A DNA stretch of 64,000 nt from an uncultured virus (IMG/VR IMGVR_UViG_3300048780_000186) (Duplodnaviria; Heunggongvirae; Uroviricota; Caudoviricetes). Location of the stretch: IMG/VR virus record IMGVR_UViG_3300048780_000186; one strand, given 5' to 3'. Under the pieces are notes generated by a model. That model was not told the origin of the DNA and ran no database searches. It saw nothing but the letters and a program-made list of their open reading frames with translations. Positions 18,955 to 56,555 of the stretch are shown here, one piece after another (position 1 is the first letter of the stretch; every line of letters starts with the position of its first letter). Made by a program: the position numbers and the translations under genes.

Positions 18955-19284
18955 CTACAGGCACAGCTTTACCTCCGTGCAAATGGTCTGGCCTTTTGGC
19001 CAGACCCGTTTCAGGCCGAGCAGAATTGCGTATTCCATGGCTCGGGTATTCGCAAGCCAACGCAAGCTGGTGGTAATCCATCGGGCCACGAGTGCCTGCG
19101 ACTTCGTCGGTGTTCCCGCAGCTTTGCGGAGCCGCTCATCAAGGATCGGCAGACACGTCCGTGCGGGACGTCCGTAGACAAGGAGCTCTCGGGTCTTGCC
19201 ACGGTCGCGGAGCTTGCCGGCAATGAGGGCGGACCAGAATCCTGCTTCATACGACGGCAGGAGCCACAATAGCCAGATTGGCAT
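18955..19284 (-). CDS. hypothetical protein
   Basis: Start MPIWLL after AGGAAGG. Confidence 0.55.
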   Translation of the reverse strand: MPIWLLWLLPSYEAGFWSALIAGKLRDRGKTRELLVYGRPARTCLPILDERLRKAAGTPTKSQALVARWITTSLRWLANTRAMEYAILLGLKRVWPKGQTICTEVKLCL

Positions 19285-19522
19285 GGGTTCCTTCCTGATG
19301 ATGCCGGTTGAGATACGCTTGAATCTCTTCCAGGACCGCATATTCCTCGGCCATGGTTGCAACTCGCATTTCATCGAAGTTGTAGAGACGCACGGTGCCG
19401 TGCTTCAGGCAGGTGGTTGTTGTCACCACCTGTCCATGAAAGTTCTCGTGGGCGCGAGTGGTTGGCCAACTCCAATGGTCTCCTGTGCATGAGCACTTGG
19501 GCCTGCGATGAAATCCGAACAC
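19247..19522 (-). CDS. hypothetical protein
   Basis: 91-aa ORF, AGGAG RBS. Confidence 0.6.
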   Translation of the reverse strand: MFGFHRRPKCSCTGDHWSWPTTRAHENFHGQVVTTTTCLKHGTVRLYNFDEMRVATMAEEYAVLEEIQAYLNRHHQEGTHANLAIVAPAVV

Positions 19523-19531
19523 GTTCAGCTC

Positions 19532-20008
19532 CTAGTGAATGACATGGGTGAAGAGATGCATCACCCAGTTATGGCCGACATTGACGAGGCCAGACGCCGC
19601 GCCAATCAGGACAAGGGAAAGAATCCCTCCCAGGAAGGCAGCCAGCAGTTTGAGACTTGCAGGTGCCTGCTTGTCCGGAATGGTCAGGGCATACATCTCC
19701 CTGAGTGCGGGTGCTTCCGCCTCGATAACAGTCCGATCAACATTCCACTTCTTGCAGAAGGTGTCGATCTTGGCCGTGGCTTTGTCCCGCAGGGCAAAGT
19801 ACGCAGGCGATCCTTTGGGTAGTCCCTTGGCCTGATGGCCATTGGCTGTCTCGATGATTCGGGCCAGAGCCTTTTCAAGAGCTTCCTGGTCCCGATGCTG
19901 GCGCCAGGCGTTGAACGTGCTCATGCCCGTTCCGTGCCAGGAGCGAATCTTGAGGCCCGCCTGTTGTAACCAGGGCGTAGAAACCTCTGCGGTGATGACT
20001 GCGGCCAT
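19532..20008 (-). CDS. hypothetical protein with C-terminal TM segment
   Basis: GAGGAG RBS before MAAVIT. Confidence 0.7.
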   Translation of the reverse strand: MAAVITAEVSTPWLQQAGLKIRSWHGTGMSTFNAWRQHRDQEALEKALARIIETANGHQAKGLPKGSPAYFALRDKATAKIDTFCKKWNVDRTVIEAEAPALREMYALTIPDKQAPASLKLLAAFLGGILSLVLIGAASGLVNVGHNWVMHLFTHVIH

Positions 20009-20120
20009 GCTGCTCCTCTTATGACTCCACAATAAGAGCCCCGACCATTGGCCGGGGCTCAGGGGAACTACCTAGTGCAATCGGTATTGGTCATCCGCTC
20101 GATCAGAGCGAATTCGGCCA

Positions 20121-20780
20121 TCAGGCTGCCTCTTTACCGAACTCCCCGTCGGGGAAAGGATCTGTGTTGACCTGTTCGGCGGGAGCTTCTTCGACGACTG
20201 GCGCTGCTTGGAACTCGGCCGGAACTTGCTCGGCAGGAAGCTGGTTGTTGAGCACCTGATCGGGGTCAATGCCTGCATCGATCATCTGTTGACGGCGCAT
20301 GGCTTGCTGTTCCTCCATCACGTACTTGCCGAGGCGTTCCGTGACATGGCGGTCGAATTCGACCTGACGAGCAGCTTCGTCCTCGATCTCGTGGCAGGGA
20401 CAGCCGGCCGTGTCGAGCTTGACGACATCGGTGACGGCCCGCTTCAGTGCGAAGGTAAGCAGTCTGGACTGCTCGTTGAGCCCGTTGATCTGGTTCAGGA
20501 TGGTGAGGCTGACCGTTTCTTCAGCCCGGGGCTTGACAACCACCTTGGCATCCTTGAACTGGTCGAGCGAGACAATGTCGGCGCGAATGGTCTCGGCAGC
20601 GGCGCGCGCCGAACCCAGGTTGCCGATGGTCAGAGCCGGTGGCTGGAAGGTCTTCGTGGTATCACCCACGGTGACTTCGACCACAAACGACCAGCGACGG
20701 ATCTTGCGCTGGGCTTCCTTGCTCTTGGGTGCGAGATTGTTTCTGTTCTTCTTGGGCGTTCTGGTTCTGGATACTGGCAC
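20121..20780 (-). CDS. hypothetical protein
   Basis: 219-aa ORF, AGGAG RBS, CTTTGGTAC motif upstream. Confidence 0.75.
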   Translation of the reverse strand: MPVSRTRTPKKNRNNLAPKSKEAQRKIRRWSFVVEVTVGDTTKTFQPPALTIGNLGSARAAAETIRADIVSLDQFKDAKVVVKPRAEETVSLTILNQINGLNEQSRLLTFALKRAVTDVVKLDTAGCPCHEIEDEAARQVEFDRHVTERLGKYVMEEQQAMRRQQMIDAGIDPDQVLNNQLPAEQVPAEFQAAPVVEEAPAEQVNTDPFPDGEFGKEAA

Positions 20781-21036
20781 TCATTTCTCCTGAAGTTGTA
20801 ACTTCAAGTCCAGTGTGCAGAAACTCATGAAAGTACCAAAGGCATGGCAGGCTGGCCTTACGACCAGCCTGTTCCGTCCATGCTGTAGTCTTTGGCTACA
20901 AGCGCATAATCCATCTCCTTCGGCAGGCTGCCTACACCGCACACCGGCACGCTGTGGCCGAACAGGCGGTGTTCAACATCGTGAAACGCACATGGTATTG
21001 CTTCAGAACATCCGTGATGCGTTAAGCGGGCGGTGC

Positions 21037-21296
21037 TCGGGACATCTTCGCTCCAATGAGATGTGCATTCAGCGCGAATCGGTCGAATCCAGCCGGTGAA
21101 TGGTTGAGTAGGCCATCAGCCGGTGGAATCCTGCCGCTTGTCGGGACATCAATCGCTCCATTTAGCGATTAACGGAATCGTGAATTAACCACTTGGGACA
21201 TATTTGCCTATACTAGAGCGGGAAATCCCAGACCAGAAAAAAGGCAAAGTGTGTCGAAAGTATCAAGACTCGATCGGAACTCTAGGGATGTCCCGA
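21037..21296. repeat. TCGGGACATC repeats in a long intergenic region
   Basis: Exact copies at 21037 and 21141 (+) and 21287 (-); variant TTGGGACATA at 21193. Confidence 0.65.
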
Positions 21297-21348
21297 CATC
21301 TCACATGCAAAAACCAGAACCTCGATGCGGAAGTGAATCCGCAGGAGA

Positions 21349-21834
21349 TTAGGCTGCCGCTGCCAACGCGTCGGCAGTGGCTTCGACGGCGACCGGGCCG
21401 GGCGTGGACGCCGGCGCCAGGACCGTAATGGTCTTGGCGCGCGCATGGAATCCGCGGCCACTGGAGTTGCGATGCCACTCGCTGGTCACATAGACCAGAT
21501 CGCCCTGCTTCAGCGCCAGAATCTGGGCATGCAGGGTGGGGTCGGCGGTCTGAACGAACCTGTCCTTGTCGGGATTGATCTGGATCACGAGGCCGATGTA
21601 CTGACGACCGAACTCGTCCTCGATGCCTTCGTCACGAACGGCGAGCACGGTGCCCTGCATCCGGATCTCGGTGTACACCTCGGTGCCCACGGACAGACCC
21701 TGGCCGTCCAGAATCTCACGGTTCTGCTTGGTCTGAAGTGCGAAGTTCTGCGCGGCACGAACGAACGGCTTGATCGCCACGGGCGGCGTGTTGCGCTGCT
21801 GATTGCGCTGGCGGCTAACGAAAGAACTGGCCAT
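21349..21834 (-). CDS. putative OB-fold nucleic-acid-binding protein
   Basis: Beta-strand pattern G.V.AV...LKQGDLVYV...AKTITVL; GGAGG RBS. Confidence 0.55.
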   Translation of the reverse strand: MASSFVSRQRNQQRNTPPVAIKPFVRAAQNFALQTKQNREILDGQGLSVGTEVYTEIRMQGTVLAVRDEGIEDEFGRQYIGLVIQINPDKDRFVQTADPTLHAQILALKQGDLVYVTSEWHRNSSGRGFHARAKTITVLAPASTPGPVAVEATADALAAAA

Positions 21835-21900
21835 TTGATTGCCCTCCTTTGGGCATTTGCGTTATTGGTTGAGGTTGTGCATCGGCGAAGACCGAGGCAG

Positions 21901-22245
21901 TTACTGGTGAGCTTGAGGTCTCCGAGGAGCCGGAGCGATGGTGCCAACGAACACCAAGTTGGAAGAGAACTGTCCAACCTGGCATTGGGCACAGGCATCG
22001 CCACGATATGGCTTGCCTTGGTTGTCCTCACCAGAACGGCAAACCACTTCGAGGTTGCCGAAAGATGGGCGGTAGCTGTGGCAGGCACGACGCAGGAAGT
22101 CCCTGGTCTTGGCCACAATCACCTGGCGGTTCGGTTCGTCAGGCCTCATGTCGCCGGCAAAGATGACCAGCTTGGTGAGGTCAGACTCCGGACTGGTCAA
22201 CTCCCTCGGGAGGACCGGACGGGGCAGACGGATTGTCCCTTGCAT
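21901..22245 (-). CDS. hypothetical protein
   Basis: GAGGAGG RBS before MQGTIR. Confidence 0.55.
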   Translation of the reverse strand: MQGTIRLPRPVLPRELTSPESDLTKLVIFAGDMRPDEPNRQVIVAKTRDFLRRACHSYRPSFGNLEVVCRSGEDNQGKPYRGDACAQCQVGQFSSNLVFVGTIAPAPRRPQAHQ

Positions 22246-22558
22246 ACAACGCCTCCTCAGGCATGGGTGGAAGATGCGGAAACTGAGTAGCCCACTGTGT
22301 AAGCCGCATCTGCAGCTCACAAAGATCAGTGGTCTTGCCGGTGAATACCAGCTCGGCTGTGTGCAGCACAGGCGTCGCTTCAAGGACGTTGACCCGTACA
22401 TCGATGGGCAGGCCGGACGCACACTCGATCCGGCCCAGAGCCAATGGAAATCCGGGATGGTAGGCAACGATCAGCTTGCAGGTGCCGGTCGAGCCGGGAT
22501 CAGCAAACAACAGCTTTTCGAAGTCATTGCACTCGGAGTCGTTGAAGTCGCTGGGCAT
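22181..22558 (-). CDS. hypothetical protein
   Basis: Coupled (TGATG) to upstream ORF. Confidence 0.55.
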   Translation of the reverse strand: MPSDFNDSECNDFEKLLFADPGSTGTCKLIVAYHPGFPLALGRIECASGLPIDVRVNVLEATPVLHTAELVFTGKTTDLCELQMRLTQWATQFPHLPPMPEEALYARDNPSAPSGPPEGVDQSGV

Positions 22559-23016
22559 CAGGCAGCCTCAAGGAGCTGGATGCTTTCAGTCAGTGTTGCT
22601 CCCAGGATGTCTGAGGTGCTTTCCGGATGAGCAGCGGAGTTCTCGGCGAACACCGTCCAGAGCAAGAGGAACTGTTCCCGATGCTCCCAGACGTATTTGG
22701 CGATACGGTCGAGGACCGAGAAGCTCAGCAGCGTGTCGATCTCCCTGCGCGCGATGCGCATGCAGACACCGAACTCACTGCTCGGATCGCTGATGAACAG
22801 TTGGTTGGCGTAGAGCTGGATCAGGTAGAAGGACAGCACTTGGCGTGCATCCTTGTTCAGGGTGACAGTGAAGACGACCTCACTGATGGCGACCAGCACT
22901 TGGTCATCCGAAGGGATTCCACCCTCGAACTTGGAAAAGGCAGCCTTGATCGCATCGGTGACAAGAATGCTGCCCTTAACCATGCTGGCAAAGGAATTGA
23001 GTAGACCAGTATTCAT
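22558..23016 (-). CDS. hypothetical protein
   Basis: GGAGG RBS before MNTGLL. Confidence 0.7.
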   Translation of the reverse strand: MNTGLLNSFASMVKGSILVTDAIKAAFSKFEGGIPSDDQVLVAISEVVFTVTLNKDARQVLSFYLIQLYANQLFISDPSSEFGVCMRIARREIDTLLSFSVLDRIAKYVWEHREQFLLLWTVFAENSAAHPESTSDILGATLTESIQLLEAA

Positions 23017-23293
23017 GGTGAGTCCTCCAGACCCAACGGGTTGTTGTTGCGTGAAAGATCGCCGGGCAGTCAAGGAGATGAACCTGCCCGGCGCCCTCTG
23101 CAGTGGAGTGCGAGGGAATCTCTGTGGATTGAGCGGAGCAAGCTCGACGCTCCAAAGAGCGGTCAGATAACGCTCCGACCCAGCGGGCCTGTTTCTAGCG
23201 CGGGAGGTCTCCGCTTTTCAGGATGCACGCACCCTGCCCCAATTGCATTGTGGATGGGGTCGAGCAGTGAAGCACTACGGCAAACACCGTAGG

Positions 23294-23593
23294 TTAGAAC
23301 TTCAGCTTGTCCAGTCCAATGCAGCGGACTGAGTTGTGGTTGACTTCCGGTGCAACCCGGCGAAACTTGGGCTTGGCCGGTCGACCCAGAACCGCTTGCA
23401 GTGTCTTCTCCATCGCAGCACCCGGCCGCATGAGGCGGACGTTGCGCTCCATCAGAGCAGTGAATCCCGGAAGGTTCTGGTGAGCCATACCGAGAGCAAC
23501 CTTGGCAGACTCCGAACCCAGGTTGTACTGGGCCAGCAGTCCATGGAGGACCTGCCGACGGCCGGTCCTGTCGAGAGCTTGAACATCGATCAT
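23294..23593 (-). CDS. hypothetical protein
   Basis: 99-aa ORF with GGAG RBS. Confidence 0.65.
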   Translation of the reverse strand: MIDVQALDRTGRRQVLHGLLAQYNLGSESAKVALGMAHQNLPGFTALMERNVRLMRPGAAMEKTLQAVLGRPAKPKFRRVAPEVNHNSVRCIGLDKLKF

Positions 23594-23639
23594 GGCGAAC
23601 TCCGCATTGCGGTTGACGATGTTGAGGTTGGGCTGAGGG

Positions 23640-23834
23640 CTAGAACTTCCGGCCGATCAAGCCGGTCGAATAGGCGAGCGTGTCACCGGTATCAGAACCG
23701 TTGAGCAGAGCTTCTCTCGATGCCTGGAAAGTCCGGGGCATGAGAGTGCGGATCATCCGGTCTTCGTGAATGGCGTGCAGGCGGTCCTGTCCTAACGTGG
23801 AACCGCGACGAGTGCGAGCATGAGGCATGGGCAT
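23640..23834 (-). CDS. hypothetical protein
   Basis: AAGGAG upstream of an internal Met; start uncertain. Confidence 0.5.
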   Translation of the reverse strand: MPMPHARTRRGSTLGQDRLHAIHEDRMIRTLMPRTFQASREALLNGSDTGDTLAYSTGLIGRKF

Positions 23835-23974
23835 AGACGAGGCTCTCCTTGAAGCCTGGTGGAAGTGGTTGAATTGTTGGGATTTGAAACAGAGGGAGTT
23901 GGGAACCGCGGCATCAGAGAACAACAAGGTTCAATCTGCCACCTGAAAGTGAATGATGATCCCGGCCACGATAA

Positions 23975-24226
23975 CTACCGTGGCCAAGGTATGGGCTCAG
24001 CAGAATACATCCGCTCCAACTCGCCGACCTGAAAGGCCTGCTTGTTCTTGCGACGCTCCCACCAGAAAAAACCGGCGAAGATCAGAACGGCCAGGGCAAC
24101 CTCGGCCATCAGTAAAGGAATCAAGTCACGGTGCTCCCAGACGAACAGGGAGAGAGACTGTGACGCATCGGAGAACCACGAAGGATCCTTCGGCGGATTG
24201 AGAATGATGACATCACCGTTGAGCAC
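23975..24226 (-). CDS. small membrane protein
   Basis: One TM segment; AGGAG RBS. Confidence 0.65.
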   Translation of the reverse strand: MLNGDVIILNPPKDPSWFSDASQSLSLFVWEHRDLIPLLMAEVALAVLIFAGFFWWERRKNKQAFQVGELERMYSAEPIPWPR

Positions 24227-24235
24227 GGCAGTCTC

Positions 24236-24376
24236 CTAGCAGATGGCAGCCGATGCACCGGCAGCCTGCATGGCCTTGTTGCACTGGGCGTTAAAAATGG
24301 CAGCGAGAATCAGGGCAGTGATTACCCCGGCAATGACACGAGCAGCGATGTAACCAAGCATCTCCAGCATGAGCAT
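24236..24376 (-). CDS. small membrane protein
   Basis: AAGGAG RBS, hydrophobic core. Confidence 0.55.
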   Translation of the reverse strand: MLMLEMLGYIAARVIAGVITALILAAIFNAQCNKAMQAAGASAAIC

Positions 24377-24379
24377 TCT

Positions 24380-25200
24380 CCTTGAACACACAGGTTGTAC
24401 CGAGTGGATGAGAGACAGGACGTAAAGTCCATAGAGGGAAGGCATTACAGCAAAGCGATGAGCCTGGTAGTGGAGTACCAGGCCCATGGGTGCCACAGAT
24501 GGCACAAAGCTTGATCGAGCAGGATATAGCGACTCTGGTGTATAACCGGCTTTCCGCTTTCAGCAAAGCCGATGATGGGGTTTACACTCACCCACCACTC
24601 CTGAACACAGCCAGAAGTGGATTTACACTAGGTCTCTCCGTCCTGCCTGACACCAACACATACACGCGCGCACGCGGGAGCTGGTTCTCAGGATTGCCCT
24701 TAAATAGCCAAACCACAATAGGCCGCGGTCAAGCTTCACCACCGTTCAATAGGCGGTAGTTTCAGCATGACTGGCTTTTATGGGCTTAAATGAATCCGGC
24801 GCTCCAAAGCTCTTTAACGTGATCTGAGCATCGGGGACGTGGTACATGTGGGCATAAGCCACTGTAAGCATCTGAATGACAGACACTTACCTGACTACCT
24901 CACCACTTCGCCTGACACGCCTCTACCCGAGGGCGAAGCCCCTCGGGACATAGCGGCTGTTCTGCGGCTGGTTGCCCAGCGGCGGGTATTGACTGTTGGC
25001 ATATCCATATATAGGTATTGACTGACCCTGGGCTGAGCCCAATGAGGCAATCGATCCCATGTGTGGTTCCAACTTGCCGATTCCCAGGACGAATCCTGGT
25101 CATCAGGATGGGCATGACCCATCAATGTCAGAATCGTTCCAGAGTGGAATGATCCTGACATTTCGGCCTTCAAGCAGGGCCGAACCGCCAAGTTGTTAAT
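24380..25200 (-). ncRNA. ~820-nt structured non-coding region downstream of the RNA polymerase gene
   Basis: No credible ORF; many perfect stems (24462/24476, 24490/24500, 24547/24565, 24926/24940, 25070/25189). Confidence 0.5.
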
Positions 25201-25203
25201 GGT

Positions 25204-28200
25204 TTAGAAGTCTGTGCTTTCGTCGAACTCGAAGTCCTCTGAAGCAATCTCTGCCACCAGGTTGGACTTGTAGTCCGAGTGCAGCTCAGGAGCTGAGTCA
25301 TAGACGTGGATCACGCCCTTGGGCGACATCATGTAGCTGCCGTCCGGGATGGTTGGATCGGCTGTGCGGGACAGGAGCTTGTCATTGCTGCGGTGGTAGA
25401 TATTGCCACCGAGAGCCTTGACTGCTACTGGCCTAACCAGCCGGCGCTTTGCATAGCCGTTGAGGTCGATGAATGCGACGCAACCGGTAAGGCCGAGATC
25501 CTCCTCGGCCGACAGGACGTCATCCAGGATGTAGTTTGGCACACCGTCACCGACGGATTGCGTGAACTTGTCCTCCCCAACGAGGGGGTCGGTGTTGCGG
25601 TTGTATACCGTGTTGAGCCAGTGGATCCCGAACTTGCGCCGAGTCTCCACAGACCATGGCCGTCCGGACACACTGAGAGTGGTGCCCGATACGGAGAACT
25701 GGTTGGTGTAGAAATCAACCAGGCCTGGAGTGTGAACTTCCTCCATGCTGGTGACCTTGCCGGTGGCGTCCTTGACCAGGATGGTCTCGGTGAAGCCATT
25801 GGCAATACGGTCATAGACGTTGTCAGGGAGCACGCCGCCGTTGTCGGCCTTGGCTTCCTGGAACTGACGGATCCACCAGCTGCGAAGGTCTCTGACCATC
25901 GAGAGAATAGCCTCATCCTCCGGATAGGCATTGAGCAGCTTGGCTGCCAGTGGCCGCTTGATCATGTGTTCCACCTGACGGCTCTCTTCGAGCAGCTGGT
26001 CACGACGTGTGTTCAGCAGATTGAGCGCCTTGCACAGCTTGGTTTCCACCAGGATGTAGTTGCCCATGTTCTTGCGATCACGGGGCATGCGGTTGGCGAA
26101 GGAGATCGGAAAGACCAGGGTCTTCAGAGCTTCCTTAGCCTCAGCGAAGAGCGACATCACTGTCAGCTTGTCGCCTTTACGCATCTGGGTGTAATCGATG
26201 ACCAGGTCCGAATTGGACATGGCACGAGCGCACATGAAGTCTGGCTTGGCGGCGTTGACAAGCGACGCCACATAGACAAACCAGTCCAGCGTAGGCTCAT
26301 ACTCGATCGGCACGATCTTCGCCAGTCCCTCAGGCAGCAGCTGAATCAGCTCATGCCGTAACGGTGCCGTGAAGTTGTCGGGCACGATGAACGTCTTGGC
26401 CTGCAAGCTCTCACCGATGGTGATCCGGTGTTCGCCAGACAACAGGGTGTCCAGCCAGCCGTTGTTGATGAAGGAACCCAGGGATTCCGAATACTCGGTG
26501 AACTCCCTGAGCTGCTGTGCGAAGCAGTTGAAGTTCCACTCATCGCCGATGCCCAGCCACTTCTCGCGGTTGGTCTTGGCGAATGCGGATACCTCACGGA
26601 CTTTGACGATGAGTTTGGGTTGAACTGGATAGTCCATCGTCTGCCACTTGGCGATGAAGGCAGAGTCCTGGATGGCGAACAAGTTGTCATCCATATCCCC
26701 GCCATTCAGCTTGCCGAGCAGATCGCCGGCGTTGGCGCCGAAGAAGCACCAGCCCTGTCCCTTGGACTCCAGGAGTTCAGGAACAAGGATGTTGCAGACA
26801 AGAACCATCTCAGTTGAGTTGGTGTTGGGATTACGCCCAACGAGCACCGGGCCTTCCAGGAGATCCGGAATGCACACGGTAGGCAGCCCATCCCGCTCGC
26901 CACCGAGAGTGTCGAGTGTGAAGTCGGGCATGCCGTTGGGCATCATGACCAGTGGATTGGGCCGAGCATAGACACGGATCGCACCCTTTAGTGGAATGCG
27001 GCCGCGGGTAATGTCCAGAGAATCCTGGAAGCCATGCTTGAAGATCCGCCGGTAGAGCACCGGCAGAGTCTTCGATTCATGCTGCAGCTTCATGGCACGC
27101 ACCAGCGCCCATTCGGGCTTGGGCATATCCATGTCGCGGCGAGCAGCGTCCGACACATTCACCAGAGTGGCGAAGTAGTCAGTGATGGCATCTTCGTCGT
27201 CGCCGAAGAGGATCTTGGCACGCTCGTCCATGACCTCAAGGCCATACCGTACGCAGAGGTCTTCTTCGAAGAACCCGGCATTGGTGATGGTCTGAAGATC
27301 GGTCATGAGTTCGTGCTTGCTGGTCTTCAACAGCAGCCCGATGTAGATGCGGTCGCCATGAAAGACGACCTCGTCCTTGGAGCCATAGAGATAGATGTCA
27401 TAATCTGCCATCCTCTCGTTTGCTGCGTAAATGCCTTTGCCGAGACCGAATGGTCCGACAAGGGTTGCAGCGCACCCGTCAAAGCCGGGTAAGTTGATGA
27501 CGCCAGAGCCGTCCAGAAAGGCCGTCTCCTGATCGTTGAGCAGCTTCATGTTGAAGTTGAGAATGGAGATGACTCTCCCATTCTTCAGCTTGGCCATGGT
27601 GACCTGGCCTGTCGGCACCGGATAGCTCGAGATGATCTCGGCTTCCAGCATGGACTGGTGAGCAGCCATGGTACGGCGCATCCGCTTGGGCGCCTTGGGA
27701 TCAGAGGAGATGAACACTCCCAGATCCTTGAGGCGCTTGACGTTGGCCGAAGCTGACACCAGGACCATGGTCCCGGTGCCATTGACATCGGCATAGACGA
27801 CGCGGAAGCGTTCGTCACCTTCAGTCCAGCCGTGACGGCAAAGGAACTTCGCCGTTTCAGCCATGTCCTTGCATCCATCCTTGCCGGACGCTTCGAATGT
27901 GACGATGCCATACCTGGCACCTTCGGGCATCAGTGCATCGAGAACCTGCCGGGTCTCATGCTGCATGAAGTGCTCGTCCTTCTGATAGAGAACAGGCTTG
28001 CCGGGATACGGCCGGCGCACACGAGTGATGATCTCTACGTCCGTTGCGTCATAGAGAATGTGGAAAGCCATTCGGCTGTCGTGGTTCCACAAGGGAACTT
28101 CGACATCAGTCGCTTCGCCGTCAGAGTAGATGAACTCCTCTGCCGTTTGCTCATCTTCGAGACGCAATGCCTTCACGTCTTCCTCCTTGAGATGATTGTG

Positions 28201-28257
28201 AATTGGGCTGTGGCTTAGAGCGATCAGTTCGCTCAACAGATTCTTGTCGTTAGACAT
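25204..28257 (-). CDS. single-subunit two-barrel RNA polymerase (YonO / cellular RdRP-like)
   Basis: Ordered motifs FLDGSGVI, GLGKG, VLVGRNP, LNGGDMDD, and LGSFIN downstream; AAGGAG RBS before MSNDKN. Confidence 0.8.
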   Translation of the reverse strand: MSNDKNLLSELIALSHSPIHNHLKEEDVKALRLEDEQTAEEFIYSDGEATDVEVPLWNHDSRMAFHILYDATDVEIITRVRRPYPGKPVLYQKDEHFMQHETRQVLDALMPEGARYGIVTFEASGKDGCKDMAETAKFLCRHGWTEGDERFRVVYADVNGTGTMVLVSASANVKRLKDLGVFISSDPKAPKRMRRTMAAHQSMLEAEIISSYPVPTGQVTMAKLKNGRVISILNFNMKLLNDQETAFLDGSGVINLPGFDGCAATLVGPFGLGKGIYAANERMADYDIYLYGSKDEVVFHGDRIYIGLLLKTSKHELMTDLQTITNAGFFEEDLCVRYGLEVMDERAKILFGDDEDAITDYFATLVNVSDAARRDMDMPKPEWALVRAMKLQHESKTLPVLYRRIFKHGFQDSLDITRGRIPLKGAIRVYARPNPLVMMPNGMPDFTLDTLGGERDGLPTVCIPDLLEGPVLVGRNPNTNSTEMVLVCNILVPELLESKGQGWCFFGANAGDLLGKLNGGDMDDNLFAIQDSAFIAKWQTMDYPVQPKLIVKVREVSAFAKTNREKWLGIGDEWNFNCFAQQLREFTEYSESLGSFINNGWLDTLLSGEHRITIGESLQAKTFIVPDNFTAPLRHELIQLLPEGLAKIVPIEYEPTLDWFVYVASLVNAAKPDFMCARAMSNSDLVIDYTQMRKGDKLTVMSLFAEAKEALKTLVFPISFANRMPRDRKNMGNYILVETKLCKALNLLNTRRDQLLEESRQVEHMIKRPLAAKLLNAYPEDEAILSMVRDLRSWWIRQFQEAKADNGGVLPDNVYDRIANGFTETILVKDATGKVTSMEEVHTPGLVDFYTNQFSVSGTTLSVSGRPWSVETRRKFGIHWLNTVYNRNTDPLVGEDKFTQSVGDGVPNYILDDVLSAEEDLGLTGCVAFIDLNGYAKRRLVRPVAVKALGGNIYHRSNDKLLSRTADPTIPDGSYMMSPKGVIHVYDSAPELHSDYKSNLVAEIASEDFEFDESTDF

Positions 28258-28391
28258 GGTGATTCTCCTTCCCCCTCCACGGGGTCGGTTGAGTACGAAT
28301 GAGTTTTGCTGGGTCTTGTGCGCAGAAGCCGCGGGCATGGGCTTCCTGTTGCCAGTCAGTTCCGATGCCCTGTTTGCGTCCTTGAGTAGTC

Positions 28392-28664
28392 TTAGAGGGA
28401 GGCAGGCGTTGCGGCCGTCTTCTTGGCGAAGAGGCCAGTGAACCCAGTCCATGCCTGCTTGGCTGCCGGGATCGCACAGACCTGAGCGGTGCCAGCCGCA
28501 CGGGCTGTCACATCGGTGGTGCGCTGCGTGGCATCGGCGGCATAGTGAATGCCTTTGGCAAGGTTGTCGCCGATGAAGTGAATGGCGATGGAGCTGAATG
28601 CTCCGTTGACGATTTCGTTCAACATGGCACGCTGTTCAGGTGTGAGCTGTTTCTTCGTGGTCAT
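28392..28664 (-). CDS. hypothetical protein
   Basis: AAGGAG RBS; first gene of the leftward block. Confidence 0.7.
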   Translation of the reverse strand: MTTKKQLTPEQRAMLNEIVNGAFSSIAIHFIGDNLAKGIHYAADATQRTTDVTARAAGTAQVCAIPAAKQAWTGFTGLFAKKTAATPASL

Positions 28665-29008
28665 TTCATTCTCCTTGAATGGCAGCAAGCGAATTAGGAC
28701 CGGGTGGGCTAAAACCCAAATAGGCCAGCCTCCCTGTACTACTTGTTACCTGGTGTCTTCATCCCCATCACTTGCGGCGCCTCGCACGAAGCCCCATGAA
28801 CGAGTCACCTGACCAGTTGCTGCGCTGTGTATGAGTCACTTAACGGGTACTTGATCAGTCAGGAGATTGTGGCAATCTTCTTACAGGCCGGCTGCGGAGA
28901 ATAGGAATCCCAATCTCCGCATGAATCTCAGAACCTGCTCAGAACACAAGCAAAAAGGCCTCACGTGTGGGCCTTTGGTACATCGAGAATCGGGACCACG
29001 CTGGGAAC

Positions 29009-29446
29009 ATGGTCAAACCCATCGATCCTTGGCCTGCACCAGGCCCGAACTCACATATCTTCTTCAAGGTCACGGCAGTGAACCCCAACCACTACGGGAC
29101 TCCTCCCACGACGTTCATCGTCGAGGCGCTCAATGAGGAGGCGGCCGTCGAGTGCATCAAGCGCGCAATCTGGGCTGGTATCCTCTTGCCACACAGCTAC
29201 AATGGCGCTCTCAATCCCTGGCCCACATATTTCCAGAGCAATGCCCTGAGGTATCTGCTCGATGGGATGTTCGTTGCCGAGGAACTGGAGACTCTGCCGA
29301 CGCTGCGGTTCTTTCCCGATCCGTGCGTTCGGGATGAGTGGCTGCGCTACCAGCTCTCCTGGATGGCTCGTCTTGTCGAGGACATCCAGAAGTGGTGGGA
29401 TGCTATGCTGGCACGGCCCTTCTTCACTTCCTGGTTTGGAAGATGA
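29009..29446 (+). CDS. hypothetical protein
   Basis: First rightward ORF, downstream of a CTTTGGTAC motif. Confidence 0.65.
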   Translation: MVKPIDPWPAPGPNSHIFFKVTAVNPNHYGTPPTTFIVEALNEEAAVECIKRAIWAGILLPHSYNGALNPWPTYFQSNALRYLLDGMFVAEELETLPTLRFFPDPCVRDEWLRYQLSWMARLVEDIQKWWDAMLARPFFTSWFGR

Positions 29447-29587
29447 AGTTCCTTGTCGTCATCCTTGTCGTTGCGGCAGTAGTTCTGCTCTCTACTGGCC
29501 ATGTCATCTCGGCCTGCGGGGCAATCATGCTTGCTGGCACCATGTCCCGGTTCATCGTCCGAACCCCAACCCTTTGAAGGAGTTTCA

Positions 29588-30235
29588 ATGAGTTCCAGCC
29601 TCAATCACTACACAGCGAACGTCCAGGTGACGGATGCCGTGATGCACAACAAGACCCCTCTCGCCACCTCGACCTTCGTCATTGCTGTCCTGGCTGCCAA
29701 TGTGACCGATGCCCAGGCCCTGATCCAGGAGTTCTATGGCCGCTCGGGGATGTCCTCCAAGATGATCAACGGAGTGCATACCCTGTTTCGTTCTGCCGCT
29801 CCGAATGTCCCAGGGGCGATCCGGACTGTTTCTGTCACCAACATCACCTTGGTCCCAGATACTGTTGCCGCTTCTACTTCGGCGCCGGCTGCTGTTGCTG
29901 AAGCTCCTGTGGACACCGCGGCTCCAGTTGTTGCCGCAACGGTTGCTGCCACGCCAGATCCTGCTACCAGCACCGCAACTGAGACCACGACAGCCGTTCC
30001 GTCCGTCATCAATGCGACTGCCTCACCTGCTGCCTCCACGGCCGTCACTGACACGACGACCACGACTCAGCAGGAAGTTTCCGCTCCGACACTGAAGCCC
30101 GGTGGACGTGGACGGAAGACCCTCACGGTAGATCCTTCCGCATCGACCCAGACCGCTGCTCCTGTTGTCGCCGAGACGACCTCTTCCACGACTAGTGCTC
30201 CGACTTCCTCAGCGACCGCTCCCGCAGCCAGCTAG
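29588..30235 (+). CDS. protein with Ala/Thr/Pro-rich low-complexity tail
   Basis: AAGGAG RBS; globular N-terminus followed by an extended tail. Confidence 0.75.
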   Translation: MSSSLNHYTANVQVTDAVMHNKTPLATSTFVIAVLAANVTDAQALIQEFYGRSGMSSKMINGVHTLFRSAAPNVPGAIRTVSVTNITLVPDTVAASTSAPAAVAEAPVDTAAPVVAATVAATPDPATSTATETTTAVPSVINATASPAASTAVTDTTTTTQQEVSAPTLKPGGRGRKTLTVDPSASTQTAAPVVAETTSSTTSAPTSSATAPAAS

Positions 30236-30359
30236 AACAGCACATTTTTGTGAAAGCCTTACAAGCCCGCCGCCCTGGCGGGCTTCGTAGCTTTGGTACA
30301 TTCCCTAGCCTCCACATACTCGCAATTGACGGCCCAGCCAGGGCTGTGAGGAATGAAGC

Positions 30360-30566
30360 ATGTCGAAGGAAGCAATTCTGTTTGCCGTCACCGAGACCAA
30401 GGTTCGTGACAAGGCAGCCGGCCGCGTAGGCACGGTCACCTTTGAGAGCGCGAACGCCAAGGGCACCAGCAAGGTTGTCCTGGTGGGTCAGGAAGAGGTC
30501 GTCGACGACTACCGGGTGGGTGAGTTCTATGAACTGACCCTCAACCAGGTTCAGGCGCCGAAATAG
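30360..30566 (+). CDS. hypothetical protein
   Basis: 68-aa ORF with GAGG RBS. Confidence 0.7.
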   Translation: MSKEAILFAVTETKVRDKAAGRVGTVTFESANAKGTSKVVLVGQEEVVDDYRVGEFYELTLNQVQAPK

Positions 30567-30622
30567 TCAGATGTCTGCTGACATTGTCCCAATCATCAAC
30601 CCGTTTTGAGAGGAATTCCGCA

Positions 30623-30874
30623 ATGGCATTTTGGGAAGTAACTGGCACCGTCGTGACCGAGGACAACAACGCAGTCACGTTTCGCACCTTTGTCCCCGCC
30701 GAGGAGCTGGTGGATACCGTCAACGAAGGTCTCGATGCGATCTTTGAGATCGAGAACCCCGAGGTCTACGACGAACCCGAGACCACGACCAACGGTTGCT
30801 TCGCCATGGCTCATGGCCTTGCGGCGATTGAACCGCCTCCGGCCGTGAATGTCCACGTCGAGGTGCATGTCTAG
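30623..30874 (+). CDS. hypothetical protein
   Basis: GAGG RBS before MAFWEV. Confidence 0.65.
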   Translation: MAFWEVTGTVVTEDNNAVTFRTFVPAEELVDTVNEGLDAIFEIENPEVYDEPETTTNGCFAMAHGLAAIEPPPAVNVHVEVHV

Positions 30875-30876
30875 TC

Positions 30877-31098
30877 ATGCAGGCTCGGGTCAAACTCACA
30901 CCGCGCATCATTGCCAGGTTGATTGTCGGCAAGCCCGTGACAGTCAACCTGCCGGCAGGCACATCGTCACTTTCCCTCGTAACGGAAGGCAAGTTCCACG
31001 AATTCCTCCGTGCGTTTCATGCACCGGAAGAGTTTGATCCGGAGACCTCGCATACGGAAGTGATCGGCCTGTTCGACCTGATTTTTGGAAAGCACTAA
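30877..31098 (+). CDS. hypothetical protein
   Basis: 73-aa ORF in operon. Confidence 0.6.
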   Translation: MQARVKLTPRIIARLIVGKPVTVNLPAGTSSLSLVTEGKFHEFLRAFHAPEEFDPETSHTEVIGLFDLIFGKH

Positions 31099-31142
31099 AC
31101 CACAACCGAGTCCCAGCAGTTGATCAGGAAAGGCATTCTGGA

Positions 31143-31481
31143 ATGAAGATCCAACCCATCAGCAACTACCTCATCATCAAGCTCGATCCGGCCGATGAGA
31201 ACATCGGCAACAGCAAGTTGATTGCACCGGGCCAGCTCAATGAGGCCTACAACGTCCCCAAGCGGATGGGCACCGTCCGTGCAGTTGGCCGCGGCCTCGT
31301 CACTGCAGGCGGCGAGATCATTCCTCCGCAGTTGAAGGCTGGCGATCGCGTCTACGTCCTGCAGACAAAGGTCGAGATCACTGTCGAGTACGATGGCGAA
31401 GACTGCCTCGTCCTGTCGGACGAGTCGCACGTCATCGGCATCATCACCGAGGAGTCTTCACTGATTCTGGGGGGCAAGTAA
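31143..31481 (+). CDS. groES: co-chaperonin GroES (Cpn10)
   Basis: MKIQPI.NYLII, GTVRAVGRG, G...PPQLKAGDRV, V.YDGE..LVL..E..VIGII. Confidence 0.92.
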   Translation: MKIQPISNYLIIKLDPADENIGNSKLIAPGQLNEAYNVPKRMGTVRAVGRGLVTAGGEIIPPQLKAGDRVYVLQTKVEITVEYDGEDCLVLSDESHVIGIITEESSLILGGK

Positions 31482-31732
31482 TGCCTCCCTTATGACCATG
31501 TCTGCCGCTCAGCAAGAAGCGATCAATGAACTCTCCGCGATGTGTGAAGCGCGCGGCTGGCTCACCCCTCGTGATCAGATGGTTCACCTGTTCTCCCACC
31601 ACCAGTGCGACATGATCTGTGAAGAGAATGGACTGCTGTGGAATAAGGCGTGTTCCTGCGGCGTCACTATCGATGTACGCCGTGGTGGCTACATCCAGCA
31701 TCTGATTGCAGTCCTGAACAAGGAGTCCGGAC

Positions 31733-31969
31733 ATGAAGCTGTTTCTTTTGACGTTCGAGGTCAAGTTCAAGCAGGACACAAATGTCCTGACTATCAAGGA
31801 TCAGATGATTGTCCCCGAGAAGACCGAAGCCTCTGCCAAGAAGCGTTTTCTCGCAACGATCGAGAAGGTGGGGACGATACTTTTGCGCTTCAACGACTCG
31901 ACCAGGATTCTTGCACCCATCCGCGATTTCGGCGGAGAGGTCTCTATTACAAGTTGCATAAAGCAGTAA
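31733..31969 (+). CDS. hypothetical protein
   Basis: AAGGAG RBS. Confidence 0.6.
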   Translation: MKLFLLTFEVKFKQDTNVLTIKDQMIVPEKTEASAKKRFLATIEKVGTILLRFNDSTRILAPIRDFGGEVSITSCIKQ

Positions 31970-32033
31970 CGGACTTCCTCTGCGGCCTGCTCTGTACCTT
32001 TGGTACTTCCTACTAGCCGTTCATTCTGGGCAC

Positions 32034-32318
32034 ATGGATGCCCAGAAAGAAGCATATAAGCTCCTCAAGGAACACGGCGAGCAGATCAGGCACAACAAGC
32101 ATGAAGCCTGGCGTGTCAACGGCCACCTCATCACCATCACCAAAACCAAGACCGACGATCGCGGCTGGCTGAACAAACTCTGCGAGATTCGCCGTTGTCT
32201 AAGGGCCCCGGCGGAGGAAGTCTACCGTCAGGGCCGGTGCAATGGGAAGGGCCGGTTCACCGATGCTCCGGTGTCACAGCACTCTGTCAGTTGTGCTGGC
32301 CCGGCCGCGACGAGGTAA
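32034..32318 (+). CDS. HicA-like small protein
   Basis: KLLKEHG..IR..KHE.W..NG..ITI..T..D.R...N....IRR pattern. Confidence 0.5.
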   Translation: MDAQKEAYKLLKEHGEQIRHNKHEAWRVNGHLITITKTKTDDRGWLNKLCEIRRCLRAPAEEVYRQGRCNGKGRFTDAPVSQHSVSCAGPAATR

Positions 32319-32423
32319 GCCAAATGCTGACTGGCATCTCTCTCAACAAGATCGATCTCTTCGATACCACCGAACTCGACGCCGAGTTCAATGCCCACAG
32401 GGCCAAGAAGGAGCAACAACCCA

Positions 32424-32837
32424 ATGCCACCTCTCAAGAACCAACCCAAGAAAGCCACGGCGAAGGCCAAGCCGGCGCCGGTCAAGCCGACGGCGAAAAC
32501 TGAGCCCGCGGCGGCACCGGCAGTCGTAGCACCGCAGGCACCGAAGTTTACTGCCGGCGATCTCGTACGGAAGGCCCTCCAACTGCGCCAGCAGCATACC
32601 CTGAACGCTCCTGCTCCCACAACTGAGGTGCCAAAAGGATCCAAGCCCACGATCGTCGAGTTCAAGGTCGTCCTCAGCGACGGCACGGTTCTCCACGCCA
32701 CAGGCAAGCATGCCGATGTCATGGTGCGCTTCAGCAACGAGTGCCAGGAGATCTGCCAAACCCAGGGCTTGGCTGCCTACAACGGACCCCCTATGACCCG
32801 GTACACCGCCCAGGAGTGGGCAGCCAAGAACGCATAA
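32424..32837 (+). CDS. hypothetical protein with Lys/Ala/Pro-rich N-terminus
   Basis: AAGGAG RBS. Confidence 0.65.
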   Translation: MPPLKNQPKKATAKAKPAPVKPTAKTEPAAAPAVVAPQAPKFTAGDLVRKALQLRQQHTLNAPAPTTEVPKGSKPTIVEFKVVLSDGTVLHATGKHADVMVRFSNECQEICQTQGLAAYNGPPMTRYTAQEWAAKNA

Positions 32838-33285
32838 ACTTCGCTCATGTCAAACTCCGGTAGTAGAGCAGTTTCCGGCGTGTCCTGCACTCGACCGCAA
32901 CTCGAGAATTGGAGTCTCTTCCACAACGCCCTCCTGCACCGCTCCCTGAGTGGGAAGGCGATTTCGCGCTAATTGAGAACCTCGAACGCTGATGTATGGG
33001 ATGTAACCCTCATGCCTTGTATGAGATAAAGGATACATATATAAAGGCACAAAGCATCGGACCCCTTTAGTCTACGGCTTGCGCCGACAGACTTCACAGA
33101 GGTGGAGCCCGATGTGCTCTAACCGTTCTTGGGGAGCAACGACCTCAATAAAATTAAGCGGCACCGGCGGCTTCAAGCAGACCTGGGGGTCAGAGGCCGT
33201 CGGTGCCGTTGGGCGGTCTTTTCGCAGAACCGCCCATCCCTTGAATACATTTTGGCTCCTCACATGCGGGCTTCACGCCCGCTGC

Positions 33286-34455
33286 CTACGCCGCCGGAGC
33301 AGCGGGCAGGGCCGTCGCCACCCGGTTCTGCCCCTCACGCTTTGCCTTGTATAAAGCCCTGTCGGCTGCCAGGAGCAGGTCTGGAGGTGTCGTGATCGTT
33401 CCATCCGGCTGGGGCATTGTAGTGGCAACACCGATGCTTGCGGTCACCGACACCCAATCACCGGAATTCTTATTCGAGCGAAAGCGTAAGGTCTGGATGG
33501 CAGAGCGCACTTTTTCAGCGGCCCTGAACGCACCGAGCCCCTCTGTAGCGGGAAGGATGATTGCCATCTCATCCCCACCCCAGCGGCAGACAATATCTGA
33601 AGCGCGCACGGAGTCGCTGATGGCGGAAGCAACCGTGCACAGACAAACATCCCCGACAGGATGCCCGTACCGGTCATTGAACGGCTTGAAATGATCTATA
33701 TCGAGTAGCAGCAGGGACAGTTGCGATTCCTCGCGGACCGTTCGTTTCCATTCCCTTCTAAGGCTTTGGTCGAAAGCGCGACGATTCCAGAGCCCGGTGA
33801 GAGCGTCCGTCATGGCCAGGGCGGACAGTTTCTCCTCCAGCACCTTGCGGCCGGTGATGTCCCGCATGGACAAAACGTAGACGCGGGGCTCGCCGTTCAC
33901 CGGATCGCGCACACACCGGGTATTGATGCTGGTCCAAACCGGGGTTTGGTCCTTCTTCAACAGCCGCACTCTCACGTGGGAATAGGCAGCGCCATCCTCG
34001 GCGCTGCCCGTGGCAATATCTTCGAGGACCGCAAGGTCCTCGGAAAATACGAACTCGTCGAAATCTTTGCCGATCATCTCGCCGGGGTCCCAGTTGAGAG
34101 TGTCGAGAGCAGAAGGGGACACGTAGCGAATCGCATGATCCGCGCCAACGCTGCACAGAATATCGGCGCAGTTCTCTGCCAGGAACTTGTAATCGATCTC
34201 GACCGCGCCGCTCGGCTCGTGTTGGTCTTCAGGAGGAATCAACTCAACTCCTCGAACGAGGCCAGGGAAAAACGTTTGCGGTGCGCCCCCGCAAACGGCC
34301 CTTAAACCCGTGGTCGGGGAGTTGGAAAGCCGATACGACACGGCTCCTGTGACCTTTAGCCGCGAAGCCTGGACATACGTCACAGGCTCCCCGACCCAAA
34401 GGCAAGGGAGATCACACGTCTTGCGACGTGCCTTTGTCGTATTCGGGGTTTCCAC
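33286..34455 (-). CDS. PAS-GGDEF diguanylate cyclase
   Basis: PAS (YVSPS...W.P.E.IG), TDALTGLWNRR, DIDHFKPFNDRYGH..GD, RASD I-site, RWGGDEM, ADRALYKAK..G.NRV; start uncertain. Confidence 0.93.
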   Translation of the reverse strand: METPNTTKARRKTCDLPCLWVGEPVTYVQASRLKVTGAVSYRLSNSPTTGLRAVCGGAPQTFFPGLVRGVELIPPEDQHEPSGAVEIDYKFLAENCADILCSVGADHAIRYVSPSALDTLNWDPGEMIGKDFDEFVFSEDLAVLEDIATGSAEDGAAYSHVRVRLLKKDQTPVWTSINTRCVRDPVNGEPRVYVLSMRDITGRKVLEEKLSALAMTDALTGLWNRRAFDQSLRREWKRTVREESQLSLLLLDIDHFKPFNDRYGHPVGDVCLCTVASAISDSVRASDIVCRWGGDEMAIILPATEGLGAFRAAEKVRSAIQTLRFRSNKNSGDWVSVTASIGVATTMPQPDGTITTPPDLLLAADRALYKAKREGQNRVATALPAAPAA

Positions 34456-34799
34456 ACCCCAGGGCGGCGCGTGACCGCCCCAAAGTCATCATAACTTTGT
34501 TTTGCAGTCTTTTGGTAGGGTAAGAATCTGTTTTTCTCCAACCTGCCCCGGAATAGCCGAGAGCTTTTTGCCCGGCGAGGTTGAGCCACGCTGCCATCAT
34601 TCGGGGCAGGTAGGCACGCAATAAAGCATCGGCTTTCTAAGCCGGGCCGACTTCTTGCCTCATTGGGTTCATGAACCCCATAATCTTCTCACTGGCACCA
34701 ACAGCTCGTAGCGCTCACTGAGAGATCTATCGATCTTCCGTTACAGGTTCCGGGCGTCTGGTCTGCACCTCGGAAGCAGACCCACTATCCAAACCCCTG

Positions 34800-34829
34800 G
34801 AACCCCGCCTTCGGACGGGGTTCTTTTTT
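34800..34829 (+). terminator. intrinsic terminator
   Basis: GAACCCCG/CGGGGTTC stem followed by a T6 tract. Confidence 0.8.
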
Positions 34830-39585: not shown

Positions 39586-40003
39586 CCCACAACAGTTAGG
39601 AGCACCAACCGACAGCGCGCCTACCACCGGCGCGCTGTTGTCGCATTCGGTAGGACAGAACCATGAAACCCTTCTCCGCACAGATCAAGAAGCCCGTACG
39701 AAAGACCGGACTGGCCGCGATGCCCACCCGTGTCATCAAGACAGGCGCAAGCCGGTCCGTAGTCGGCGGAGTCGCGCGTTCAGCCAGGACCGCCGGCGCC
39801 CGCAGGCTCCGCGGAGTTTGATTCCTATACTGATGCTGTATGGCCTTGACATTTGACCCATGCAAGCCCTTGAAAACACGGGGCAGCGGTAGTGGGTCAA
39901 AACTTACCCTTTGCAGGACATTTTCGAGACAGATTTACGCGGCGAAAAAAGCCTGTCTTTTCAACGGGCAACTTCTGCCGCGAATCTCTTAAAGTTTGCA
40001 AAC

Positions 40004-40660: not shown

Positions 40661-40854
40661 GTTGCGATGCTACAGGACAAAAAATCGGGAAGCCAGCATG
40701 GTTGTTGCCGCGTCCCGAAACCTACCCCTCGTGGCCCAGCCCGCCGCACAGGTGAAGCGAGGACAGAGAGCGCAAGCGCCACGCGCAGCCCCTAAACGGC
40801 CTTCGCTAGGTTAAGGCCAATTAAGCAGTTTCGAGGGGTTGGGAAAAATAGCGA

Positions 40855-42000: not shown

Positions 42001-42023
42001 AGTGTCCCTCTTTCCGCGCTCCC

Positions 42024-42150
42024 CTACCGCCTGAACTGCCGCCGGATCGCAAGCAGAAACAGCGCAAACAAGGATGAAGTCAGCAACGTCTCAACAATCG
42101 CAAGAACCCGCCCCAGCGGATATCCTTGCGCTGTTCTTTGAGGACTTCGA
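42024..42150 (-). pseudogene. C-terminal remnant of a membrane protein
   Basis: YPLGRVLAIVETLLTSSLFALFLLAIRRQFRR* without a credible start. Confidence 0.45.
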
Positions 42151-42189
42151 ACAAAGACTGGAAAAGCTGTAATTCCGGGGTCATAGGGC

Positions 42190-56478: not shown

Positions 56479-56555
56479 CTGCGGTCTCTGACGCACACCT
56501 TTACAATCCGCCGGCCCACGTTGGACCAAACCGCCCTGAGGAGGGTATTTTTCAC

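Follow-up and report, generated by a model that had tools for sequence, protein, structure and literature searches.

A family of single-chain two-barrel polymerases with a D-x-D-D metal-binding loop, probable RNA polymerases of phages, in a large prophage of Acidobacteriaceae

The 64,000-nt stretch of DNA analyzed here (hereafter the window; IMG/VR record IMGVR_UViG_3300048780_000186, from an uncultured Caudoviricetes virus) encodes a single-chain polymerase of the two-barrel superfamily in which the metal-binding aspartate loop has the form D-x-D-D instead of D-x-D-G-D. The shortened loop is constant among the full-length homologs of this protein, and profile comparison and structure prediction place the protein closest to the cellular RNA-dependent RNA polymerases (RdRPs) QDE-1 and RDR2. 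Judging from sequence, modeled structure and analogy with characterized enzymes, we regard it as probably a phage DNA-dependent RNA polymerase that transcribes phage genes from phage-specific promoters.

The polymerase gene lies in a minus-strand frame that is open without interruption for 1082 codons (25204-28452), as seen in the list of open reading frames and its translation. The ATG at 28257 was preferred as the start because it sits 7 nt after an AAGGAG sequence and because the equivalent methionine is the start in 13 homologs; it is likely the true start, and the in-frame stretch from there up to 28452 is probably not translated. Residues are numbered here from this methionine. The four motifs named in the first-pass annotation (DGSGVI, GKG, VLVGRNP and GGDMDDN) are all present in the translation in the typical order given there, and the metal-binding loop does read D-M-D-D, with D521, D523 and D524 spaced 1-3-4 as opposed to the usual 1-3-5 (Table 1). 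The gene was also correctly described as the second of a leftward block, since a 90-residue open reading frame precedes it and plus-strand genes begin at 28967, on the other side of a divergent switch region.

Homology searches recovered 16 family clusters in a set of 5.8 billion proteins and 116 clusters at E ≤ 1e-3 among 1.84 billion representatives at 50% identity (87 at E ≤ 1e-10 and 36 at E ≤ 1e-30), and a profile built from 61 diverse family members (A2) brought in only fragments when run against the 5.8-billion-cluster database. Conservation was counted on all 69 returned proteins of at least 800 residues, which were aligned after leaving out 59 shorter fragments. In 69/69 the loop reads G-[GA]-D-x-D-D, with D521, D523 and D524 each kept in every protein, and is followed by a variable position 525 (S in 18, N in 14, A in 7, M in 6, and others). 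Equally invariant are P477, K274, K191, R195, G250 and G275, followed by R475 (68/69), K294 (67/69) and D249, which is kept in 59 proteins and replaced by Glu in six more (D/E in 65/69). Constancy in 69/69 makes the D-x-D-D loop a property of the whole clade as opposed to damage in a single gene; it defines a clade of at least 116 representative clusters, and the doubt raised beforehand that the aspartates might vary among homologs does not hold. The invariance or near-invariance of the three aspartates, the R-x-P motif and the lysines argues for an active site, and all three aspartates would still hold the catalytic Mg2+ pair.

Established family collections contain little that resembles this protein. 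PHROGs holds no family for it, a tblastn search of 50,697 phage records returned no match, and a search of the PDB with the single sequence produced a chance match only. The Pfam RdRP family PF05183 matches below threshold (12.2 bits against a cut-off of 23.8, E 0.07), aligning residues 529-625 of the long open frame with profile positions 379-485, in the catalytic region; in a six-frame search of records G001-G003, PF05183 gave no match. Matches in BFVD are proteins of uncultured phages, one of them annotated as 'RNA dependent RNA polymerase', and the neighbors in the ESM Atlas are Acidobacteriota clusters and one Uroviricota cluster, the latter with PF05183 on 39% of its members. Each phage record carries one copy of the family. 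In two loci from metagenome-assembled genomes, L034 (6001-9052) and L039 (6001-8895), polymerase homologs are matched in two or three frames; these frameshifts may be assembly errors or pseudogenes.

Against PDB sequences, profile A2 retrieved three QDE-1 entries at E 1.7e-5 to 1.8e-5, the next match standing at E 0.41. The HMMER alignment with QDE-1 spans the region between the VLVGRNP strand and the Asp loop, both included, and sets GGDmD.D opposite GGDYDgD, so that the loop glycine is deleted and the third aspartate retained. On this alignment the R-x-P of VLVGRNP corresponds to R962-x-P964 of QDE-1, known as the 'Pro-gate', which contacts the 2'-OH. The residues of the N-terminal, beta-like barrel (K274, K294 and D/E249) occur in the right order and at the right spacing; K274 and K294 would be equivalent to QDE-1 K743 and K767, judging from order, spacing and a non-significant HMMER stretch, and D249 is on the same footing a candidate counterpart of QDE-1 D709. 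Comparison of A2 with the single YonO sequence of SPBc2 by hhalign gave a weak similarity (probability 39.8%, E 3e-4, 111 columns), in which the one-residue gap recurs, here opposite DNDGD.

An AlphaFold2 model of the polymerase built on A2 has a predicted local distance difference test score (pLDDT) of 89.5 and a predicted template modeling score of 0.84, with only residues 1-51 and 1011-1017 disordered. In a Foldseek search of the PDB it matched RDR2 (7eu1_M, E 4.5e-14) and QDE-1 (7y7q_B, E 2.5e-13), with RDR2 and QDE-1 entries ranging from 4.5e-14 to 1e-11, followed by the non-virion RNA polymerase (RNAP) of a Thermus phage (8f5m, P74 gp62, 3.2e-7; 8f72, 1.2e-6); the crAss-like gp66 and bacterial beta' were marginal. 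Structural alignment with VIA-align agreed, giving Z 17.7 for RDR2 7w82 (604 residues aligned, root-mean-square deviation (rmsd) 7.2), Z 14.5 for QDE-1 7y7r_A (662 aligned, rmsd 5.5) and Z 13.1 for 8f72_B (503 aligned). An isolated double-psi beta-barrel (DPBB) domain, 7dg9, was superposed on model residues 422-531 (Z 8.2, rmsd 2.3), and the largest subunits of multisubunit RNAPs on residues ~411-749 (Z 7.3-8.0).

The model thus contains two DPBB domains, the N-terminal one being matched in whole-chain alignments only, and R475 lies 46 residues before D521, in keeping with an R-x-P loop some 35-45 residues ahead of the Asp loop. Absence of the double-psi barrels had been named in advance as grounds for abandoning the identification; they are present in the model, together with the QDE-1/RDR2 architecture. 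Fold comparisons and the A2 match to QDE-1 therefore support a divergent single-subunit two-barrel polymerase. Its description as QDE-1/YonO-like stands for QDE-1 and RDR2, which are near in both sequence and fold, and is weak for YonO. The literal D-x-D-x-D signature of the superfamily is absent, D521-x-D523-D524 being found in 69/69, and the Pfam RdRP threshold was not reached; we therefore place the family within the two-barrel superfamily, outside RdRP and YonO.

The window belongs to a larger element. Near-identical or related records of 124, 178 and 214 kb were found, the last of them 99% complete according to CheckV, and homologous loci lie inside chromosomes of metagenome-assembled genomes (MAGs) of Acidobacteriaceae, including one 98% identical copy in a 3.26-Mb contig. 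One record, G002, represents the same phage; it follows the window collinearly, with 92-97% nucleotide identity by blastn, and ends with a tyrosine integrase. The copies in MAG chromosomes and this integrase indicate that the window is part of an integrated jumbo prophage, and the host element is a temperate prophage of ~180-214 kb of soil Acidobacteriaceae. The window itself encodes a nuclease, HNH endonucleases, a ligase and an SbcD-like exonuclease, and G002 a replication set (split PolA, DnaG-type primase, beta clamp, clamp loader, RecD2 and single-stranded DNA-binding protein) along with Rad52, a RecA-like protein, ribonucleotide reductase and ligases. With PolA, primase, clamp and the rest encoded in G002, replication does not call for the two-barrel enzyme. 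The polymerase region is covered by contigs from four metatranscriptome libraries, with non-zero depth in all bins of 25148-28467 in 4/4 runs.

Two classes of promoter-like motif accompany the polymerase. Class I has the form CTTTGGTA-N16/17-CA(c/t)(a/t)CT, widening to CTTTGGTA-N16-CAnnCT for the nine copies of the window. Its first element, CTTTGGTA, occurs nine times in the window against 0.54 expected, a number reached in 0/100 shuffles. Class I copies lie on the minus strand left of 28.7 kb and on the plus strand to the right, switching at 28.7-28.97 kb, and stand 20-45 nt ahead of start codons, all of them co-oriented with local genes; in G002, 20/20 copies follow the local gene direction. 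Class II, (T/C)CCTATACTAGAC, occurs five times in the window, always on the plus strand, and in G002 8/8 copies are on the strand of the structural arm. The class II copy at 51652 directly follows a hairpin (ATCACC...GGTGAT), and this hairpin is kept in the related record G003.

Both motifs are confined to the prophage. Within the 6.1-Mb host MAG G004, 9/9 composite class I and 7/7 class II matches fall inside the prophage interval of contig 4, with two (class I) and one (class II) matches for reversed-pattern controls. Both motifs also recur in G003, where the polymerase is 41% identical: class II has nine matches against three for the control, with the extended motif conserved, and class I four against zero. 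Restriction to the prophage in G004 and recurrence in G003 indicate that these are phage-specific signals and not general host promoters. Neither motif was found ahead of the polymerase operon, which fits an early operon transcribed by the host whose product then reads phage promoters; a scan of 24500-29600 for the sigma-70 consensus gave 0 promoter-like sites.

A different integrated element, in G005, was considered for co-variation of motif and polymerase and set aside as uninformative. It carries a 49%-identical polymerase and the 90-residue gene ~6 kb from an integrase homolog (L038, G005:C1 ~3433000-3461600), shares only 14 of the 182 G002 proteins within 240 kb and lacks class I and class II motifs. 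The family therefore also occurs on a distinct, apparently smaller integrated element.

The same phage encodes a second polymerase candidate, a 1679-residue beta'-like protein in the structural arm, found by scanning the 182 G002 gene calls with the published RxP...DxDxD filter. The protein carries R-H-P...D-A-D-G-D in 12 homologs at 25-98% identity, with P1162, D1196, D1198 and D1200 invariant, is present in G003 and G004 and in G002 has a class I site 146 nt upstream. Searches of Pfam, PHROGs and PDB sequences gave no match for it, its profile (A4) retrieved nothing from PDB sequences, and A4 and A2 show no similarity by hhalign (probability 0.2%). An AlphaFold2 model of residues 640-1679 is of moderate quality (pLDDT 61, core ~70-85). 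Foldseek matched it only to RNAP largest subunits, such as vaccinia Rpo147 (E 5e-4) and the AR9 non-virion RNAP (7s01_d, probability 1.00), and VIA-align gave Z 9-10.9 over 320-390 residues, with largest subunits making up 50/50 of the matches listed. The modeled fold makes this protein a candidate second, possibly virion, RNAP, and the phage may thus carry two RNAPs, as P23-45 does. An earlier proposal that the D-x-D-D enzyme was the only RNAP of the phage, prompted by the lack of PF00623 and PF04542 matches, was dropped once this protein had been found.

The mechanism that we propose for the D-x-D-D enzyme is as follows. The N-terminal beta-like double-psi barrel would supply the invariant Lys and Arg residues and the beta'-like barrel the R-x-P loop and the metal-binding aspartates, with helical modules after it. 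Loss of the glycine from the D-x-D-G-D loop has left D524 directly beside D523, and the three invariant aspartates would still bind the catalytic Mg2+ pair. The enzyme would be an early product of the operon at the divergent switch region and would then transcribe phage genes from class I CTTTGGTA-N16-CAnACT promoters, class II CCTATACTAGAC promoters or both, a role parallel to that of YonO in driving the late genes of SPbeta. We infer the DNA template, the promoters read and the timing partly from precedent: YonO, of a temperate phage, is described as a DNA-dependent RNAP responsible for late-gene transcription (PMC5467207), and the R-x-P arginine of QDE-1 is described as contacting the 2'-OH (PMC9508822), so that its conservation here favors the use of ribonucleotides.

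Several observations weigh against this assignment. Among solved structures, the nearest relatives are QDE-1 and RDR2, which are RNA-dependent or accept both kinds of template. The coverage by RNA libraries consists of contigs, which cannot show transcription, strand or starts. The layout of class I, an 8-mer followed by a 16-nt spacer and a -10-like hexamer, resembles sigma-type recognition; one G002 site has the class II sequence TATACT exactly at the class I -10 position; and host RNAP with an unrecognised phage factor could read these promoters. The 1679-residue beta'-like protein could likewise be the enzyme that reads the motifs, and with a second RNAP candidate in the same phage the case for the D-x-D-D enzyme as their sole reader is weakened.

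These last points define an alternative that we consider unlikely, although it is the strongest of those weighed: a sigma-like factor of the phage that has escaped recognition would let host RNAP read the promoters, or the giant beta'-like protein would read them, and the D-x-D-D enzyme would have a narrow task, such as one operon, priming or transcription after induction. The bipartite -35/-10-like architecture of class I agrees with such a reader, as does the presence of the beta'-like protein with its invariant D-x-D-x-D in the structural arm of G002, G003 and G004, and YonO itself is described as driving a single late operon. Conversely, Pfam sigma-70 region 2 (PF04542) was not detected in G001-G003, the D-x-D-D gene heads the early arm, next to the switch region, and is kept in both jumbo lineages, and its catalytic residues are strictly conserved. 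A search of the phage records with PF00623 gave no match; the corresponding search with PF00940 (T7-like RNAP) carries no weight, as its control was silent.

Less probable still is an RNA-templated or dual-template polymerase that would copy phage or host transcripts into double-stranded or antisense RNA, serving regulation or conflict instead of acting as the phage transcriptase. This explanation gains from the best sequence and fold matches, which are cellular RdRPs, from the sub-threshold Pfam RdRP match on the catalytic region, from the ESM Atlas neighbor cluster with PF05183 on 39% of its members and from QDE-1, for which both RNA- and DNA-dependent RNA polymerase activities are described (PMC9508822). 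The phage members of the superfamily characterized in the sources consulted (YonO, phi14:2 gp66 and P23-45 gp64 and gp96) are DNA-dependent, however, and Pfam scans of the window and of G002 turned up no RNAi-like partner genes. The many structured RNAs nearby to which the first-pass annotation had appealed were not borne out: Rfam recognized only two tRNAs, more than 21 kb away, with nothing at E ≤ 0.1 in 19000-33000 and hence no Rfam RNA within 6 kb of the gene. Finally, a change of chemistry through the re-spaced loop, yielding a PolD-type DNA polymerase or primase or a non-catalytic nucleic-acid-binding protein, is very improbable, for even though the literal 'invariant' D-x-D-x-D (PMC2919709) is missing and archaeal PolD is included in the two-barrel fold (PMC10770324), the three aspartates, R-x-P and the lysines are kept in 69/69 or nearly so, the phage itself encodes a PolA, a DnaG primase and a clamp, and no PolD chain is among the best 50 Foldseek or best 50 VIA-align matches listed.

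Adjacent aspartates are a feature of the GDD and YMDD motifs of the unrelated right-hand polymerases. For two-barrel polymerases, the published statements that we consulted take an Asp triad with D-x-D-x-D spacing as the defining signature (PMC2919709, PMC7824862, PMC10770324), calling it invariant (PMC2919709) or speaking of a 'triad of aspartates in a DXDXD signature' (PMC7824862). A table in Supplementary Data 4 of PMC10770324 was filtered on '[RK]xPx{20,100}DxDxD' and lists the variants DDDKD, DSDFD, DTDFD and DHDGD, all of 1-3-5 spacing; because the filter demands D-x-D-x-D, the D-x-D-D family is excluded from that survey by construction. A full-text literature search found no description of a D-x-D-D phage RNA polymerase family, but it did not extend to the alignments of 23 RNAP families in Supplementary Data 3 of PMC10770324, where the family might figure.

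It is conceivable, and we put it forward tentatively, that the D-x-D-D clade is the first two-barrel lineage with a loop one residue shorter that is nevertheless active, and that it forms part of a two-polymerase cascade in which each enzyme reads one prophage-restricted promoter class. If so, a shortened active loop with an adjacent Asp pair would recall GDD/YMDD. The clade, with its 116 or more representative clusters that D-x-D-x-D filters would miss, is in any event a natural experiment in how far the catalytic loop of a cellular-type RNA polymerase fold can be re-engineered. From the Acidobacteriota of peat and soil, a host phylum that has received little study, it also brings a probable family of phage RNAPs, and the candidate cognate promoters that come with the family might serve as an orthogonal expression system.

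Around the polymerase, the 90-residue gene adjoins it in 6 of 9 related loci and is the better conserved of the two. In loci L037-L039 its product is 78-96% identical, with polymerases that are only ~49-53% identical, a pattern that points to recombination of a mosaic kind at the switch region or else to tight constraint on a small partner protein. Elsewhere in the window, blastn matched two stretches (32846-34803 and 39831-43058) to nothing in G002, which is collinear outside them; the diguanylate cyclase and Sel1 genes that they carry look like variable cargo. The tRNA match that was not called by ARAGORN is possibly an intron-containing or otherwise unusual tRNA. Additional genes of G002 encode a peptide deformylase, a SpoU methylase, a LuxR-type response regulator and a prokaryotic E2-like protein.

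Table 1. Features of the window and of related records (positions are those of the window unless a record is named)
Feature	Position	Strand	Basis or remark
Polymerase gene, D-x-D-D family, single chain, 1017 residues	25204..28257	-	Open reading frame, ribosome-binding site, homolog starts, AlphaFold2 model, fold matches
GGDMDDN, residues 519-525, metal-binding loop of beta'-like barrel	26683..26703	-	Position mapping and conservation
VLVGRNP, residues 471-477, strand and R-x-P loop	26827..26847	-	Conservation; aligned to QDE-1 by HMMER
GKG, residues 273-275, invariant K274 of N-terminal (beta-like) barrel	27433..27441	-	K294 lies 20 residues on
DGSGVI, residues 249-254, acidic D249 and invariant G250 of N-terminal barrel	27496..27513	-	
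90-residue gene, first of leftward block, directly upstream of polymerase	28392..28664	-	No family match
Class I sites	5237, 20841	-	
Class I sites	28973, 30291, 31998, 35144, 36598, 58321, 61201	+	
Class I CTTTGGTA-N16-CACGCT, divergent switch	28973..29003	+	Points away from polymerase operon
Class I CTTTGGTA-N16-CACACT, first on the polymerase's own arm	20811..20841	-	Upstream of gene 20780-20121
Class II site CCTATACTAGA	21207..21217	+	
Class II, other copies	37139, 43058, 51652, 62357	+	
1679-residue beta'-like protein, structural arm (locus L021)	G002:C1:35266-40305	-	~12 kb past the right end of the window
G003 copy of the giant beta'-like protein	G003:C1:179654-184573		
Terminase	45087-47537		
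Portal	49047-51812		
Major capsid	56427-57881		
tRNA-Trp, 90 nt	1950-2039 (Rfam match at 1953-2039)	-	Rfam match
tRNA match, 128 nt	3855-3982	-	Rfam, 47.4 bits; not called by ARAGORN
Thioredoxin gene	5860-6246	-	
Cpn10/GroES-like gene	31143-31481	+	
PAS-GGDEF diguanylate cyclase	33286-34455		Within first stretch unmatched in G002
Sel1 protein, 8 repeats	40855-42000		Within second stretch unmatched in G002

Among known systems, the closest in architecture are the cellular single-chain RdRPs of PF05183, QDE-1 of Neurospora and RDR2 of plants, which align over ~600-660 residues (Z 14-17.7) and share the motif order DG.G,.KG, R-x-P, GGD.D..D. The spacing from the R-x-P arginine to the first aspartate is 46 residues here and 45 in QDE-1 (PMC9508822), which is also the only significant PDB sequence match (E 1.7e-5). 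They differ in their sequence, at 12-13% identity, in having D-x-D-G-D where the present protein has D-x-D-D, and in that the gene described here belongs to a bacteriophage. The beta'/beta core of multisubunit RNAPs likewise contains a beta'-like DPBB with R-x-P and an Asp loop; in the phage protein, however, there is one chain, other conserved domains were not detected and the glycine of NADFDGD is absent.

Several phage two-barrel RNAPs can be compared as well. The crAss-like phi14:2 gp66 is described as having a non-glycine residue at the fourth position of its loop (DFDID), which indicates that the loop tolerates change, although it keeps the D-x-D-x-D spacing, is 2180 residues long and virion-packaged, and is a weak fold match (Foldseek E 5.8e-3, probability 0.33). 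P23-45 gp64 and P74-26 gp62 of Thermus phages are single-chain two-barrel non-virion RNAPs that align with Z 13 over ~470-500 residues (Foldseek E 3e-7). They are shorter (~590 residues as opposed to 1017), with a canonical D-x-D-x-D and no detected sequence similarity; the pairing of the non-virion RNAP with a second, virion RNAP described for P23-45 may hold here too. YonO of the Bacillus prophage SPbeta differs in its canonical DNDGD loop, in the phylum of its host and in its marginal similarity, confined to 111 columns around the beta'-like barrel. It nonetheless resembles the present protein in having two barrels on one chain and in coming from a large temperate prophage, where its gene follows a small one (yonP) beside a divergent regulatory region, and as a DNA-dependent RNAP for late genes it is the functional model proposed here.

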